A DNA stretch of 64,000 bases, from positions 23,402 to 87,401 of the forward strand of contig JBDLIE010000007.1 in the NCBI GenBank assembly GCA_039715015.1, written 5' to 3'. Made by a program: the position numbers. Positions 42,001 to 57,000 of this stretch are shown piece after piece (positions within the stretch are counted from its first letter, which is position 1; each line of letters opens with the position of its first letter). This DNA comes from Thermodesulfobacteriota bacterium (lineage in GTDB: Bacteria; Desulfobacterota; Desulfobulbia; Desulfobulbales; SURF-16).

Positions 42001-45000
42001 CGCCAGGTTATGGTCCCTCTCCCTGATGTCCTTGGTCGTGAACATATCCTTAAGGTCCATGCCGAAAAGATCAAGGCATCTCCAGACATTGACTGGAAAA
42101 CCGTTGCCAAATCCACTCCTGGTTTCTCTGGGGCTGAACTTGCCAATATGATTAATGAGGCTGCCTTAATGGTTGCCCGCCGCGGCGGCAACGTCACCAT
42201 GGACGACCTAGATGCCGCCAAGGATAAGGTGATGATGGGGGCAGAACGCCGCTCCATGATTATCACAGAAGAGGAGAAAAGAATTACCGCTTACCACGAA
42301 GTGGGCCATGCCCTGGTGGCATGGATGCTTCCTGGCGCTGACCCTGTACATAAGGTGACCATTGTCCCTAGGGGGAAAGCCCTAGGGCTTACCATGCAGC
42401 TTCCAGAAACCGAGAAGCATTCCCACTCGTACACCTATCTCTTCAACAACCTCTGCACCCTTCTTGGTGGTCGTATCGCCGAAGAGCTTATCTTTGATGA
42501 AATAACCACTGGTTCCGGCAATGACATCGAGCGAGTTAGTGATCTGGCCCGCAAGATGGTATGCGAGTGGGGCATGAGTAAGAATATTGGCCCCATTGTG
42601 TTCAAGGCTGCAGAGCAACCTGGCGCCACAAACCCCCTGGTTAGTGAAGAGTCAATTAAAGAGATCAATTCTGAGATCAAAGACCTTGTGGACACAGCCC
42701 ATGACACAGCCCGCAAAATCTTAACGGATAATATGGCAATTATGGAAGCCATCACCGAAGAGCTGCTTGAAAAAGAAACCATTTCAAACAGAGACATCCA
42801 GGTCATCATTGATCAGCATAAAACCTGATCAACTCAGTAGGAACAACAAGAGGAACTGCCATAAAAAAAGAGACATCTAAACGATGTCTCTTTTTTTATG
42901 GCAGTTCCATGTGTGCGCCTTCGCGCCATCAGCCTTTTTTTATAAATACCATTCGTACGGTGGTATATTCACCCTGAACACTTTCAATATGCAGTGAGCC
43001 GTCAAGGGCTTCGGCGATATCGTGGCCTATGGACAGCCCCATGCCTGCGCTGGTCAACTCTGGCCAGCTACTAAAACCTGGCTCCATCACCTGATCAAGA
43101 TCTTCATCTGCGATACCAATCCCATAATCCTTGATATCAATCTCAACTCCGTTCTGGCCATCAACAAGAGCACTTTGCCCAGAAACCTCAATACGTTTCA
43201 TCTCGTCATGCCCGGGAAAACGTTCATTCAAGGCCTGCCGGCAATTAATGAGAACCCCCAACAGGAGCTGCTGCAACTGCCCTGCCTGGCAATGCCACTC
43301 AGGCAATTTAGCAATATCAAGCTCTACATTAATACCATCCTGTTTGTAAAGGGGAGCCATGAGAGCGAGGGCATTGCCAATGACCCTGGTTATATTTACC
43401 ATTTCACGGGCAGCAGAATCGCCTTGGCCAAAAGCAAGGAGATTTGAGGCCAAGCCGGTGATCTTATCCCCCTGTCCGATAATTTTATGAAGAATATCAC
43501 CGCTCCGCTCATCCTCTTCCACGTCAACAAGAAGCTGAGCAAAATTAATGATACCATTGCCAATATTGCTCACCTCATGGGCAACCCCGCAGGCCAGTTC
43601 ACCAATGGCTGTAAGCTGGGAAACCCGCACCAACTCCTTTTTTCTGTTTTTTTCATTTGCCAGATCATTTTGCAGGGCCTGAATATTACTCTTGTCCGCA
43701 GTTACATCATAGCCAAAGCAGCGGACCAGGCAGCCATCCTCGGCGCATTGACTCATCATAAAAATTGCCCGTACAACTTTATTTTGATCCGGATCAGTGC
43801 CCCGCAGGATGAATTCTTGCGAACCCAGCTCGGCTAGTTTACGGACATCCAAGATTTCTCCGCACCCTTCCGGGGCCTGGAAGAAGGTATCCCACTTCTT
43901 CCCGGATAATCCCCCCTCCGGGTAGCCGCAGGCAATCTCCATCTCTTTATTCACCTGGCACATGTGACCTGTTTCATCTATCTCAGTCCAGATGCCTCCC
44001 AGTGAAGCAACCATCTCGCCGCTCACCTGGCGACATTTCTGTAGACGAATGGACACGGCCTCTTTGAGGTCCTGCTGTTCATTAATAATTTGCGCTAACA
44101 CCTGAGCCTCTTTGCTCTTGCCGGAGACAGCCACCTCATGAATCTCTCCTGCCAAAAGTCTGTCCGCATCATCCACTAAAAACCATAGGGGCGTTAACAG
44201 GCGGCGGTGAAACAGAACCAACATGCCCACCAGCAGCGAAACAGCCAAAGCACTGGCGCCAATCACCATATTCTGAAAACCGATGAGACGCTCACGGGAA
44301 GAGTTGACCAGCACACGATCAAAAAGCATGAGCCGCTCCCCCAAGGTCCGTATCTCACGACTCAAGCGCCGGTAATCCTCCTGGTTGGCTTCACCTGCCT
44401 CAACAGAACGTAGGAGGAGTACTATGCCGGGGAGATCAATGGAGTTGACCAGACTAAGCTTAAACTCCTCACCTATATGGCGGGTGTCAAGGACTTTTGT
44501 GAGGTTATAATTCAGGGTTTCCATCTCCTTACTCAGCCCCTCAAGGGGCATCTGCTCCCCTTCCATCAGGGCTGTGGAGATATGCTCACGGATAATTGAA
44601 AACTGGAATAGCAGCTTTTCCGTCTGTTCAACCACGCCCACCTGAGCATGATAAAGCTGCGACTGCCTTATGCCCATGAAGAGCAAGAGCACAAGGCTTA
44701 TGCTGATCACAAGGTAAAATGTATAGAGTATTTTCTTTAGGGGAAACGTGTCAGTCATACCAGAGACACCTCGTGTCAGCTCTCTTCTACAAAACAGAAA
44801 GCTTTGCTGTTAAGAGATCGTTTGATTACGAGCCCATGCACCAATAGTCACCATGCCCGCGCTCGTCATCAAAGCAGATCCTGGGGGAACCGGAAACCAA
44901 CCAGGGTCCCCCAGGCATAAACCACCGAACTATTTAGAGTCACCCTTCCAGGTAAAGAGGATGGGTAAACGACACAGGCAAGCGCGGTAAACAAGGATAT

Positions 45001-54000: not shown

Positions 54001-57000
54001 CTTTGCACCTGGCCCGTGGAAATAGCCTTATGCATACGACATACCTCACAGGGCTTATCACGGCCTTTATAAACGTCATAGCAGGCGTGACCTATCTGAT
54101 CGCCAAACAAGTCACGCAGGACATCATTTTGATACTCTATGGTAAAGTCAGAATTAAGAATATGCATGCCCTGGCCCATGGCCTCGAGCATGACCTGAAA
54201 TTTATCACGTTCAGCGCGGAGGATTTTCTCGATATTTTGCCGGCCGACAATCTCTTTGCGGAGGATATCATTACTCCGCAGGAGATCCTTTGTCCGTTCA
54301 TCAACACTGCTCTCAAGCTCTCTCTGGCTTTTTTTAAGCATCCGGGCATATTCAGCCCGATCTGTAATGTCGCGTATTGACTCGACGATCCCCAGAAAGC
54401 TGCCTTCATCATCCCAAAGCGGGGAGGCATGAATCTCGTAATTACGTACCTGGCCATCATCAAGTTTTATTTCATGCTCAACCACCACCGGCTTATTGCT
54501 GTCAAGGACCTCAATAAGAGGACAGGGGCGTCCCACTGTGGAGCATTGAAAGTCATGGTTATAAACAAGGGTGTGACAGAACGGCTCCTTATCCCCCTTA
54601 CAGACAAAACTATTTGAGAAATTTTGAGCAGCGCGGTTAGCAAACTTCACCCTGAAATCCGTACCAACAACCAAAATAGGATCAGGAACCTCGTTCACCA
54701 ATGAATAGAGAAAATTAAACTGCTCATGCATGGCTTCAGGGGCCATAACTTCTTTTGATTTTGCATCCTTACTGCAGGGTGGTTTTAAAACAGCCATCTT
54801 TACTCCTTATAATACATCTGGATATCAATTTATCAGAGTTACCAGGTAACCTTGCAAAACATGGGCCACAAAATATTTTTTCCCATCAACCCATTTGTCA
54901 AAAATCATTTTTTTATTAAATCATGATATGGCAAACAAATACCTGATTTCCAATAAAGTATAGCTTTTTTACCCCATTCTGGCTTACCAGAGGGCGGTCT
55001 GGGGGAGGAATCCTCAGGCCATAGAAAAGAAAGCGCCACTTTAGAAGGCCCACAAGACAAGATTAAAAAGAAGAACTCATGGAAAAACAAAAGGTTACAG
55101 AGGTGTCAAAAAAAAGAACCAAGAATAATAAAGAAGAGGCTTTTGAAAAAGAGCGGGGATAACTTCCAGAGGCAGTAATACTCCACGGAGATGACAGGCG
55201 GGCGTGATAGAAACTTAACAAGCTGAAAGGAAAAGCTGAACCCTTTCATAATTTCTACCCTTGAAAAGGTGCAGCGTAAGCGATTTTATTTCAGGTAGGA
55301 ACAGCAATAGTCAGCTACATCCTTCACTTTTAACTGGAACTTAGATTGGGCAGGGACTTCAAAAGACTGTCCACCCTCAATAGACTGCCAGGAGGATTTT
55401 CCGGGCAACAAAACATCAAGGCTTCCTGCCATGATTTCCATGACCTCTTTGGCGTCTGTGCCAAATTCATAGTCACCCGGCAGCATGACCCCCAAAGTTT
55501 TCTTCGTACCATCAGGGAAAATGACTGTACGGCTTGTTACCTTGCCGTCAAAATACACGTTTGCTTCTCGCACAACTGTTACGTTTGCAAATTCAGACAT
55601 AAGACTCTCTACTGTCGGCAGATAATTTCTATCTGCATTTTAATCAAAAAAGGGGCACACGGTAATAACCGTGTGCCCCTTAAAAACTGGTCGGGATGAG
55701 AAGATTCGAACTTCCGACCACCTGAACCCCATTCCTTTTTTTTGCATTTTCACTTAAAATCACTCTCCATCATTCGACACCAAATAAACGTTTCACAAAC
55801 AACAAGTTACATTGTATAGTAATTTCACCTATTGACCACCTGTATCACTTAACATCATGGCAATTCCAGTAGCCCAGCAGTAGCCCAGGGGGCTGGGCTA
55901 CTGCTGGGCTACCCCGAAGAGAAACGACGATGAAATGTGAACTCACCACCCAAACCATTCAGGGCTTATCGCCCAAAAAGGCCCGTTATCTTTGCTGGGA
56001 TATCTCAAGCCCAGGATTCGGAGTCAGGGTGACCCCTAAGGGTGCCAAAACCTTTATCTATAAATATAAGATCGGGGGGCAAACCAGGTGGATCACCTAC
56101 GGCCAGTTCCCAGACCTCTCCCTGGCTGAGGCCAGAAAAAAATATTCCACCCACAAGAAGGCTGTAGAAAATGGCGGTGACCCTGGCCAGACAAAAACCG
56201 ATCTCAATTTTCAAACCATAAATGCCTTGGCACCTCGGAAAACACGTTTTATCCAGTGGGACAGAAAAAACCCCGGCTTTGGAGTCCGCGTGACCCCCCG
56301 AGGGATAAAAACCTTTGTTTTCAAATACACATCCGATGGCAGATCCAGGTGGATCACTTACGGCCAATTTCCAGCCTTGTCCCTAGCCGATGCCAGGAAA
56401 AAATATTTAGTTGATAAAGGGGCTGTAGCAAATGGCGCTGACCCTGGCAGGACTAAGCAAGAGGACAAGCACCAACGCATCACAAACCCTACCGGCAAAG
56501 AGCTGGTAAAGCTTTTCTGCGAAGGGTACACCAAGCCCCGGCCCAGCACCATGGCAGAATATAAACGCACCCTTGAGGTCGATTTTGTACCAGCGCTAGG
56601 CAGCCTCAAGTCGGCCGACATCAATCGCCGCGACATCCGCAACTTGATATTCAAAAAGGCCAAAACGGCCCCTGTGGCCGCTAACAGGCTCTTGGCGGCC
56701 ATTGGTGTCATGTTCACCTGGGCCATTAAAGAAGAGTACCTTGACGCCTCGCCTTGTGTGCTGATTGACAAACCCCACCAAGAAAAATCTCGCGACCGGG
56801 TCTTAAACAATCAAGAAATTGCTTCATTAATGGCCTGGTCACATCCCAGCACTACCAACATTCTTCTTAAATTAATCTTGCTTACCGTTAAGCGCCCAGG
56901 GGAATGGCGCTTGGCCAAGTGGCAGCATGTCGATTTCAAAAAGCAGACCTTTTTCGTCCCGGCTGAAAACTCCAAAAACCGCCATGAATATCTGACCCCC

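Follow-up and report, generated by a model that had tools for sequence, protein, structure and literature searches.

The locus described here occupies positions 44930-54797 of the window, by which we mean the whole 64,000-nt stretch of DNA that was analysed from the 3.0-Mb genome of a member of the order Desulfobulbales, and all of its genes lie on the minus strand. It begins with g00739 (53136-54797), a cytoplasmic histidine kinase with two PAS domains (Pfam PAS_4, PAS_9, HisKA, HATPase_c), which has zero hydrophobic segments by hydropathy and is kept upstream of the regulator gene in relatives. The regulator, g00738 (51367-53133), is a sigma-54 enhancer-binding response regulator of the form REC-PAS-AAA+-HTH_8 (Pfam Sigma54_activat 3.6e-69, Response_reg, HTH_8), and its orthologs (51-87% identity) flank the cluster in relatives. 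The next gene, g00737 (50757-51071), left unnamed in the first-pass annotation, encodes an HmcD-like small membrane protein of 104 aa from the ATG at 51071 (NCBIfam HmcD, E 8.5e-4); we refer to it as SmB, its family carries the invariant motif T-x4-Y-x2-IKG-x-EY, and in relatives it has a 71-aa partner, SmA. Between this small gene and a module of three further genes lies g00736 (48451-50220), an FtsH paralog of 589 aa with all catalytic motifs, which matches the ATP-dependent zinc metalloprotease model TIGR01241 over its full length (756.6 bits; cut-off 600). The module consists of g00735 (47203-47733), a periplasmic cytochrome c of 176 aa with five CxxCH motifs (Pfam Cytochrom_CIII); g00734 (46199-47128), an HmcB-like Tat-exported 4Fe-4S protein (TAT_signal and Fer4_11; NCBIfam HmcB) with a C-terminal anchor (hydrophobic segment at residues 271-289 by hydropathy); and g00733 (44930-46186), an HmcC-like, NrfD-type quinone-interacting membrane subunit with ten hydrophobic segments (NCBIfam HmcC 2.6e-104), for which the Pfam scan gave no match. 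This gene string, from kinase to membrane protein, is where the first-pass annotation had placed it. Downstream of it is g00732 (42929-44758, minus strand), a membrane histidine kinase (Pfam HisKA, HATPase_c) with an outward-facing segment between its hydrophobic helices at residues 7-25 and 158-176; a homolog of this kinase (HK732-type) comes after HmcC in most relatives.

The best family matches of the module are to HmcB, HmcC and HmcD of the Desulfovibrio Hmc complex (HmcABCDEF), with which it also shares a Tat-exported, C-terminally anchored FeS subunit, an NrfD-type membrane subunit and a c3-class cytochrome. However, all four proteins fall below the equivalog cut-offs: g00734 scores 397.1 bits over its full length, just under the 420 of HmcB (NF045715), g00733 349.5 bits against 550 for HmcC (NF045714) and SmB 19.2 bits against 34 for HmcD (NF045712), whereas g00735 gives a weak match to the end of the hexadecahaem HmcA (NF045713; 46.1 bits against 400). 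The module cytochrome has five haem motifs in 176 aa as compared with 16 haems in Hmc, no genes for HmcE/HmcF (the cytoplasmic subunits for transmembrane electron transfer) are found in 42929-54797, SmB carries an additional N-terminal helix seen only in this order, and SmA and the FtsH gene are added. Matches of 23/24 SmB family members to HmcD (E up to 0.1, best 2.5e-6) show, at the level of profiles, that the C-terminal half of SmB is homologous to HmcD, while equivalence of the two proteins is unsupported. The second-best family matches of the FeS and membrane subunits are HybA (6.3e-55) and HybB (6.5e-44) of E. coli hydrogenase 2, but the cluster is without hydrogenase genes and has a cytochrome c instead of the catalytic partner. 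The Nhc and Ohc complexes of sulfate reducers, with three or four subunits, are nearer to the module in size than Hmc.

A profile search of the genome gave four Peptidase_M41 matches, 45-59% identical pairwise, and in agreement with the earlier claim of four intact FtsH proteases, Walker A, Walker B, the pore-loop aromatic residue, the SRH arginines and HEXXH are present in all of them, as in the copies sampled from each clade. In g00736 and g00731 the pore-loop sequence is MYVG; most other copies have MFVG. The N-terminal anchor and extracytoplasmic domain are represented by Pfam FtsH_ext (residues 11-93), hydropathy detecting the first helix and placing the second below a crude threshold. 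One copy, on contig C38, is followed by a Pterin_bind (FolP-type) gene, as had been noted. The copy on C11 (TIGR01241, 713.1 bits against 600) is followed by a 490-aa cytochrome, matched here as NapC/NirT-type, and then by a MerR/HspR-like gene, the order previously described. The fourth copy, g00731 (41050-42828, plus strand; TIGR01241, 796.3 bits against 600), lies within the window and belongs to a clade sister to the housekeeping FtsH. It adjoins, as annotated, and is divergent from the genes for an NrfD-family membrane protein (38719-39927, minus; Pfam NrfD 6.2e-33) and a MerR/HspR-like regulator whose tail is rich in Cys (38181-38627, minus; Pfam MerR_1; HspR model at 71.5 bits, below its cut-off of 105). 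A sigma-54 activator with four PAS domains by Pfam (35628-38027, plus) is the candidate regulator of this second FtsH locus; its orthologs (65-66% identity) have the same place in loci L202 and L203 of relatives, and the string of PAS-sigma54 activator, MerR, NrfD and divergent FtsH recurs in L202-L204.

Putative sigma-54-type promoters of the form TGGCAY-N5-GTGC, with the -24 GG and -12 GC elements 10 nt apart, were sought by motif scan. Four such sites occur in the 64-kb window (0.25 expected) and 12 in the genome, and those in the window lie upstream of genes, with an enhancer-binding protein gene nearby. They precede, one each, SmB (TGGCATAGCATGTGC, 51137-51151, minus), FtsH g00736 (TGGCACATAACGTGC, 50376-50390, minus, 155 nt ahead of the gene), the cytochrome operon beginning with g00735 (TGGCACTGAATGTGC, 48049-48063, minus, identical in two loci of the same genus) and FtsH g00731 (TGGCACATAAAGTGC with its leader, 40755-40854, plus, about 200 nt ahead of the gene). 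The leader following TGGCACATAAAGTGC ends in a 12-bp GC-rich hairpin and U-run (hairpin z -2.37), and 133/160 nt of this promoter/leader region are identical in one genome of the same genus. The genome has eight further sites, and the 10 ORFs scanned downstream of them included no cytochrome, FeS or FtsH gene. In relatives the promoter, read by eye and allowing at most one mismatch, is conserved before the cytochrome in 16/31 loci and before SmA/SmB in 18/24, and a second architecture has it about 1 kb before FtsH in 5/5 loci. After the SmB gene there is a hairpin with a U-run (50659-50692, minus), likely a terminator, which was read from the sequence and is missed by the hairpin scan, whose loop limit is 8 nt. 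The three internal promoters, this hairpin and the gaps of 717, 536 and 295 bp argue against a single transcript from the kinase to HmcC; read from these elements, the cluster is a set of separately promoted units rather than one operon.

A palindrome, GCNACA-N4-TGTNGC, is a mark of this regulon in relatives, where 45 sites were found in 565 kb (36 loci) as compared with 0-2 in each of 20 shuffled sets. The cytochrome is preceded by 30 of them (in 21/31 loci), SmA/SmB by 7 and FtsH by 5, so that 42/45 are upstream of regulon genes and 3 are elsewhere. The motif scan of the window revealed two perfect palindromes, GCCACAC-N2-GTGTGGC, separated by 14 bp (48234-48263). Only five perfect sites exist in the whole genome, these two among them, and the pair represents a putative enhancer for the regulator. 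Two degenerate copies (51253-51268, one mismatch; 51284-51299, two mismatches) lie about 100-150 nt upstream of the SmB promoter. The regulator g00738 is predicted to bind the palindrome, and since in most Desulfobulbales enhancer and promoter occur twice around the FtsH insert, both halves are plausibly under the same PAS kinase and sigma-54 regulator. However, no recognisable regulon-type palindrome was found in the window scan next to the g00736 promoter TGGCACATAACGTGC, which is nearly identical to that before g00731, and thus another activator may drive both FtsH genes.

Among 36 loci of relatives centred on FtsH, 31 have the order FtsH-cytochrome-HmcB-HmcC; the named relatives with the cluster include Desulfurivibrio, Desulfofustis, Desulforhopalus and Desulfobulbus. 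When the search is started from HmcC instead, the module is present in 87 of 151 genomes of the order, with FtsH adjacent in 59, absent in 17 and undecidable in 11; hence FtsH is directly upstream in 59 of the 76 informative genomes, although the relatives are not independent and such counts overstate the number of events. The linkage, seen at FtsH identities of 50-89%, is thus wider than the approximately 18 of 60 genomes (58-70% identity) first reported. Outside the order, 17/18 sampled genomes with the module are without a linked FtsH, which together with the 17/76 within it indicates that the protease is dispensable for the complex as such. The linkage is real, conserved and almost confined to the order, and this part of the earlier description as a conserved, order-specific operon stands, whereas the single operon does not. 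In other orders, and also in four families of Desulfobulbales, the module occurs without FtsH and its genes make up a single unit; in two of these families (f6 and f12) one promoter and enhancer precede smA-smB-cytochrome-hmcB-hmcC. FtsH itself occurs behind SmA-SmB, behind the regulator, or fused ahead of the cytochrome gene. The first of these arrangements is commonest: FtsH is then the next gene after SmA-SmB, in the same orientation and under the sigma-54 promoter of that pair. In the genus to which the window belongs and in three sister genera FtsH comes straight after the kinase-regulator pair (gaps of 96-427 bp). Two second copies of the g00736-type FtsH (L061, L075) and two further loci (L067, L074) have no adjacent module, and SmA-SmB pairs are also found far from any FtsH (on C14 and C24 of the same genome and in about 30 further loci).

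In the phylogenetic trees, which were made by FastTree only and with most rows sampled via similarity to FtsH or SmB, the module-linked FtsH copies fall in one clade (75 rows, support 100) that includes g00736, the groupings in the FtsH and HmcC trees largely match, and the presence of FtsH on the HmcC tree needs 3 changes as compared with 11.3 for shuffled labels. In an unbiased census of five genomes of the order, with 5-8 Peptidase_M41 matches each (about 5-8 FtsH-type copies) against four in the genome studied here, 10/12 members of the module-linked clade adjoin a cytochrome module, as against 1/7 members of another paralog clade; FtsH contexts were varied and included stress-type neighbours (Band_7 pairs, Usp, MscS). 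A sister clade adjoins NapC/NirT-type cytochromes in 9/11 loci, and SmA-like genes are also found upstream of its FtsH in L195, L197, L198 and L199.

That FtsH is encoded, apparently co-controlled and co-inherited with the module suggests that the protease may serve this single respiratory module. The explanation that we favour, with about an even chance of being correct, is that a short Hmc-type module has been elaborated in a way specific to Desulfobulbales. The 5-haem cytochrome c, the HmcB-like FeS protein, the HmcC-like quinone subunit, SmB and, in relatives, SmA would, judged by these parts, connect the quinone pool with periplasmic carriers through electron transfer, and in most Desulfobulbales an FtsH paralog, apparently an insertion, separates the small-subunit genes from the cytochrome gene. 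The co-induced FtsH hexamer would survey assembly of the complex and clear unassembled or damaged subunits; alternatively, its task may be to remove the whole complex once the signal ends. The control of such a module has a likeness in Geobacter sulfurreducens, where a sigma-54 promoter and the neighbouring response regulator BccR induce the inner-membrane, quinone-linked cytochrome module cbcBA with a redox shift, and where the operon opens with two small hypothetical proteins; however, the module there is a pair of b-type and 7-haem c-type cytochromes, and FtsH or protease has 0 occurrences in the text of that preprint (10.1101/2021.04.15.440034).

The proposed role would resemble that of FtsH in photosystem II repair, or the action of the m-AAA protease on subunits of the respiratory chain in mitochondria. 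In cyanobacteria and chloroplasts FtsH, and in mitochondria m-AAA and i-AAA, maintain or remove subunits of membrane energy complexes, and the organisms concerned carry several specialised paralogs; E. coli FtsH acts on unassembled SecY and F0 subunit a. In none of these cases is the protease gene known to lie inside the gene cluster of the complex or under its dedicated regulator. Here, in contrast, FtsH is in one cluster with the complex, its role being read from genomic data, and it is from gene order and regulation that we infer a protease dedicated to, and acting on, the complex. The statement that a dedicated FtsH for a respiratory cytochrome complex has not been described agrees with our literature searches for an FtsH paralog linked to a cytochrome module, which found no paper.

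The same gene order can be read differently, in that the FtsH paralog may degrade a signalling component, either the HK732-type kinase or SmA/SmB, and so set or reset the sigma-54 induction rather than maintain the complex. The usual position of FtsH behind SmA-SmB and under their promoter, its place after the kinase-regulator pair in the genera noted above, the SmA-like genes before FtsH of the sister clade and the constancy of the membrane kinase as a neighbour all accord with this; in E. coli, sigma-54 promoters reportedly depend on FtsH for their activity, and small membrane proteins serve as sensors in the sigma-54 Psp system. However, FtsH-less lineages retain this circuit, from the kinase and the regulator to SmA and SmB, together with its promoter and enhancer, so that it runs without FtsH, and SmB has its homolog in HmcD, a structural subunit; we regard this reading as rather unlikely. 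It is similarly doubtful that the extra FtsH merely adds general capacity, with no preference for the module, under a PAS-sensed condition that requires mass insertion of haem and FeS proteins into the membrane or harms membranes. The generic catalytic motifs kept by all paralogs, the number and varied contexts of FtsH copies in the censused genomes and the HspR-like MerR regulators adjoining two FtsH loci speak for this, but such a protease need not stay beside one module through three gene-order arrangements, nor have so much tree structure in common with HmcC.

The linkage could also be without function, handed down from a single ancient event in which a duplicated ftsH entered the operon. 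On the HmcC tree some three gains or losses suffice, so that much of the linkage count is shared ancestry. However, the linkage has outlasted several rearrangements, promoter and enhancer occur twice around the insert, all FtsH motifs are intact across 50-89% identity, and the sister clade is tied to a different cytochrome type; hence we consider this very improbable. A broader form of the explanation favoured here, that of a protease serving the complex, is of limited probability: the FtsH proteins of Desulfobulbales may be a family of module-specific installers and removers, in which every paralog clade is induced along with its own type of quinone-linked cytochrome module (Hmc-like, NapC/NirT-type, or NrfD with MerR) and recognises it via small membrane partners of the SmA/SmB kind, so that on redox change targeted proteolysis would join transcription in remodelling the respiratory chain.

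In bacteria, FtsH is commonly regarded as one housekeeping protease, specialised paralogs being known mainly from chloroplasts, cyanobacteria and mitochondria. The results presented here concern one large FtsH clade that is tied by position, putative sigma-54 control elements and descent to periplasm-facing quinone-cytochrome modules, and the naturally occurring FtsH-plus and FtsH-minus versions of one module provide a ready comparison. If the protease acts on these modules, they would offer a genetically tractable example of anaerobic respiratory chains under proteolytic control, in organisms that drive sulfur cycling.

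The gene list of the first-pass annotation proved correct when gene calls and Pfam and NCBIfam searches were made on the window. On the minus strand, the cluster consists of genes for a cytoplasmic PAS-PAS histidine kinase (53136-54797), a sigma-54 activator of the arrangement REC-PAS-AAA+-HTH (51367-53133), a two-helix protein of 104 aa referred to here as SmB (50757-51071), the full FtsH g00736 (48451-50220), a cytochrome c of 176 aa with a signal peptide and five CxxCH motifs (47203-47733), a 4Fe-4S protein with a Tat signal and a C-terminal hydrophobic anchor (46199-47128), a membrane protein with ten hydrophobic segments (44930-46186) and a membrane histidine kinase, HK732 (42929-44758). 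The FeS protein is HmcB-like (397 bits vs a cut-off of 420 in NCBIfam) and the membrane protein, which is not recognized by Pfam, is HmcC-like (349 bits vs 550), with HybA and HybB, respectively, as the second-best NCBIfam matches. As none of the module proteins exceeds the Hmc equivalog cut-offs and HmcE and HmcF are missing, the module is, by these sequence matches, Hmc-like and not Hmc. The single match of the window SmB is a weak one to HmcD (E 8.5e-4); 23 of the 24 members of its family that were scanned match HmcD (best E 2.5e-6), and SmB is therefore read as an HmcD-like subunit. The presence of four intact FtsH genes in this genome was confirmed by Peptidase_M41 matches and motifs, as were the folP-type neighbour of the copy on contig C38 and the NapC/NirT-type cytochrome and MerR/HspR-like genes adjoining that on contig C11.

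The sequence TGGCAY-N5-GTGC, a sigma-54 -24/-12 element with an unusual G at -14, has only 12 matches in the whole 3.0-Mb genome, and four of these are in the window, where 0.25 are expected and where four were reached by no shuffle. These four sigma-54-type promoters are located about 65 nt upstream of SmB, 155 nt upstream of FtsH g00736, about 315 nt upstream of the cytochrome gene and about 280 nt upstream of the second FtsH of the window, g00731 (41050-42828, plus strand). Further, a hairpin with a U-run, read from the sequence, lies 3' of SmB, and the intergenic gaps in the cluster measure 295, 536 and 717 bp. Due to these promoters, the hairpin and the gaps, SmB, FtsH g00736 and cytochrome-HmcB-HmcC look like separately promoted units of one predicted regulon, and the earlier proposal that they form a single operon is not supported. 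Two perfect palindromes GCCACAC-N2-GTGTGGC, 14 bp apart, are present about 170-200 nt upstream of the cytochrome promoter, and two degenerate copies precede the SmB promoter; perfect GCNACA-N4-TGTNGC sites number only five genome-wide. No such palindrome is found near the FtsH g00736 promoter, which is a weak point for this genome. The eight other genomic TGGCAY-N5-GTGC sites were considered as markers of cytochrome modules and rejected, since a scan of 10 ORFs downstream of them turned up no such gene; behind one site a PEP-CTERM protein is encoded, and the others seem to be chance occurrences. An Rfam search of 38000-55200 gave nothing at the gathering score, and its eight weak matches resemble chance hairpin matches. 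A foreign origin of the region was likewise discarded, as G+C runs at 0.43-0.52 along the window without a step and the window has no tRNA gene. A tyrosine integrase gene (Arm-DNA-bind_3, Phage_integrase) is located at 55930-57369 (plus strand), about 1.1 kb past the kinase end of the cluster.

In a sample of 151 genomes of the order Desulfobulbales, FtsH searches gave matches in 147, and 40 loci around such matches were fetched and mapped with the window proteins by tblastn. Four of these are of the C11 type and 36 are centred on a g00736-type FtsH; in 31 of the 36 loci the genes for FtsH, the cytochrome, the HmcB-like and the HmcC-like protein follow in that order, and most loci also carry the kinase and the regulator upstream and an HK732-like kinase downstream. 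The five loci lacking the module comprise two second copies (L061, L075), one contig end (L068) and two loci where a kinase directly follows FtsH (L067, L074). In most families, SmB is preceded by SmA, a one-helix protein of 65-85 aa with the motif G-x-W-G-x-A-C-L-x-G-G, and the SmA-SmB pair lies behind a sigma-54-type promoter with FtsH 180-560 bp downstream and without a promoter of its own. In the genus of the window and three sister genera, this place holds no SmA/SmB, and a gap of 96-427 bp separates the regulator gene from the FtsH gene behind it. In a second architecture, FtsH lies 117-300 bp upstream of the cytochrome gene, SmA/SmB are downstream of the module, and the promoter is about 1 kb upstream, before an IS1595-like ORF. 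FtsH is thus tied to the cluster in three different ways. The IS1595-like ORF, of about 300 aa, is conserved in the second architecture in the interval from the sigma-54 promoter to FtsH (L072:6281-7204; L079, oriented 7097-8056; L196:5308-6210); with its IS1595 zinc ribbon and partial DDE domain, it looks like a domesticated transposase retained in the operon.

When promoters in the relatives were counted by reading of the scan output, allowing at most one mismatch to TGGCAC-N5-GTGC, one preceded the cytochrome gene in 16 of 31 loci and SmA/SmB in 18 of 24, and in all five loci of the second architecture one was located about 1 kb upstream of FtsH. The palindrome GCNACA-N4-TGTNGC occurs at 45 sites in the 565 kb of the 36 loci vs 0-2 in 20 shuffles; 30 of these sites (in 21/31 loci) are upstream of the cytochrome gene, often paired 14 bp apart, and the others are before SmA/SmB (7), before FtsH in the second architecture (5) or elsewhere (3). 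It has the look that the site of the neighbouring enhancer-binding protein should have, and is regarded here as its putative site.

For obtaining loci that were not selected by FtsH, the same 151 genomes were searched with the HmcC-like protein. An ortholog (61-100% identity) is present in 87 of them, one in each, and in 56 genomes FtsH is found on the same contig 2.3-3.6 kb from HmcC. Mapping of 24 further HmcC loci revealed FtsH in three more (L243, L246, L264), bringing the total to 59. The module is without FtsH in 17 genomes, which belong to families f6 (ten), f12 (two), f7 (two) and f15 (three, from one genus); in 11 others contig ends leave the linkage undecidable, and in three of these a different contig terminates in an FtsH of this type. 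In f6 and f12, the loci lacking FtsH run in the order regulator, SmA, SmB, cytochrome, HmcB, HmcC and kinase, with one promoter and one palindrome pair before SmA; a named contig of this kind is L148. The simplest reading is that smA-smB-cytochrome-hmcB-hmcC would constitute one sigma-54 operon and that, with FtsH inside, the promoter and enhancer recur before the cytochrome gene.

Across the phylum, an HmcC-like protein (E <=1e-40) was detected in 107 of 401 genomes. For genomes not filed under the order, the 18 best loci were fetched; in 17 of them, cytochrome-HmcB-HmcC is present without FtsH within the 9-16 kb obtained for each, and in 12 of these 17 a short HmcD-like gene is directly upstream; the sole exception, with FtsH in place, is genome G344. 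Full-length SmB was detected only in Desulfobulbales and G344, only its C-terminal HmcD-like half being matched elsewhere in the phylum scan. With the SmB alignment as query, public genome contigs yielded 384 relatives, of which 77 were kept. The titles below phylum or class among these are almost all of Desulfobulbales groups (Desulfurivibrionaceae, Desulfobulbaceae, Desulfocapsaceae, Desulfofustis, Desulforhopalus, Desulfotalea, Desulfobulbus), with one contig titled Geobacteraceae. Cultured carriers of the cluster named there include Desulfofustis glycolicus, Desulfurivibrio and Desulforhopalus. Many of the kept contigs show FtsH-cytochrome-HmcB-HmcC with SmA/SmB nearby, and about 30 have stand-alone SmA-SmB pairs; a protein atlas search with SmA gave only unnamed clusters, all from the same phylum. 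The conserved, order-specific string described earlier holds as to gene order, with FtsH linked in more genomes than stated there and lacking in nearly all of the best outside loci, but it is not one operon, 17 genomes of the order lack its FtsH and G344 possesses it. The genome studied here has two more SmA-SmB pairs (C14:64565-65160 and C24:29655-30185), each behind a sigma-54-like site and with FtsH far off. A lone SmA-like gene also heads a multihaem cytochrome and cytochrome b561 pair at C46:10767-13300, beside a PAS-sigma-54 activator, a layout resembling the Geobacter cbcBA locus.

In a FastTree phylogeny of 99 FtsH sequences from all loci, every module-linked FtsH falls in a single clade of 75 rows (support 100), which contains a second-architecture subclade and a first-architecture subclade inclusive of g00736. 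Nested beside the latter is a subclade of 11 that includes the C11 copy; nine of its members are within two genes of a multihaem cytochrome and two are not, the neighbouring cytochromes being of the NapC/NirT type or c7-like with NrfD and FeS genes. Strict sigma-54 promoters before FtsH were seen in only 2 of 10 C11-type loci, the own C11 locus having none, and so no sigma-54 control is claimed for that clade. A protein of about 300 aa without a Pfam family occurs in three loci of this clade, directly 3' of FtsH in two (L195:9137-10039, L197:6498-7424) and past two cytochrome genes in the third (L199:3510-4412); in the former two it resembles the N-terminal membrane/sensor third of the HK732-type kinase (26-27% identity). 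A context-blind census of five genomes (G096, G004, G117, G067, G080) gave 5-8 Peptidase_M41 matches per genome and 30 in total. FtsH-like proteins make up 28 of these; the remaining two, from G117 and G004 (one from each), are distant longer proteins of about 820-840 aa. A cytochrome module adjoins 10 of the 12 members of the module-linked clade and 1 of the 7 members of a third clade, the five housekeeping copies being outside this neighbour count. The census genomes also carry a paralog clade absent from the window's genome, whose neighbours include a Band_7 pair, Usp, MscS and a 754-aa multihaem cytochrome. In a tree of 83 HmcC-like proteins, FtsH presence requires three changes vs 11.3 for shuffled labels, and the major groups mirror those of the FtsH tree. 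These being quick trees with related rows, they should be interpreted as indicating shared descent and not the number or direction of events.

FtsH g00731 belongs to a small clade that is sister to the housekeeping clade, and the string of PAS-sigma-54 activator, MerR, NrfD and divergent FtsH is kept in 3 of 4 further genomes with an FtsH of this type. In the stretch 40755-40860 (plus strand), its promoter leads into about 60 nt of leader and then a strong 12-bp GC hairpin with a U-run, with some 200 nt still to go to the start codon. In a same-genus genome, 133 of 160 nt here are identical, more than in the flanks; the stretch matches no Rfam family and may act as an attenuator or give a small RNA that depends on sigma-54. 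The spacer separating NrfD from the divergent FtsH also holds, about 130 nt upstream of this promoter, a perfect palindrome with a 20-bp stem (40586-40628; core AAGTGGCGCA...TGCGCCACTT), a candidate that may serve as a MerR-type operator or as an enhancer for the PAS-sigma-54 activator (35628-38027). The MerR-family genes at 38181-38627 and C11:101-583 both match HspR best (71.5 and 71.8 bits; cut-off 105), which hints at stress-type or redox-type control of the adjoining FtsH copies; the former encodes a Cys-rich tail, CWDIAECPKNVHECC. A third module, on the minus strand, comprises an FeS protein (33876-34634), a c7-like cytochrome (33300-33776), a second NrfD (30861-32051) and a second MerR (30389-30760), with sigma-54-like sites at 32315 and 32524. 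The 30-55 kb part of the window is thus packed with sigma-54-linked NrfD-type modules.

By its parts, the module near FtsH g00736 would be a periplasm-facing quinone:cytochrome c oxidoreductase of the Hmc, Nhc or Hyb-anchor kind, whose electron direction is not readable from sequence. Sensing of redox or energy state is suggested by the two kinases, one cytoplasmic with PAS domains and one in the membrane, and by the PAS-containing regulator. A precedent is provided by Geobacter cbcBA-BccR, where an inner-membrane cytochrome module is under sigma-54 control by the neighbouring response regulator and the operon starts with two small hypothetical proteins (10.1101/2021.04.15.440034). Our preferred reading, to which we give about even chances, is that the FtsH, predicted to be co-induced, looks after this complex. 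Speculatively, it might take hold of HmcC by the cytoplasmic N-terminus of 46 residues, of HmcB by the 20-residue tail past its anchor, and of SmA and SmB by their tails. A complex prediction of HmcC with FtsH residues 1-130 and SmB as partner gave a score of 0.01 (mark 0.32), which speaks on neither side of the binding question. The strongest fact against an essential role of FtsH is the occurrence of the module without it in 17 genomes of the order and in other orders. The paralog could instead be a regulatory protease of the signalling circuit, which we regard as unlikely, and a function as general quality-control booster seems to us doubtful to a similar degree. The trees point to shared descent, and that the FtsH-module link is mere inherited linkage we judge very improbable, the link persisting through the different arrangements.

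Photosystem II repair and mitochondria provide, in principle, known examples of FtsH paralogs that serve a single energy-transducing complex. A search of the literature outside subscription journals returned no bacterial FtsH whose gene lies within a respiratory cytochrome module and shares its regulation, which agrees with the first-pass annotation that a dedicated FtsH of this kind is undescribed. If the co-induced FtsH of these Desulfobulbales does look after its neighbouring complex, then it would survey the assembly of this complex and would clear its orphan, damaged or unwanted subunits.
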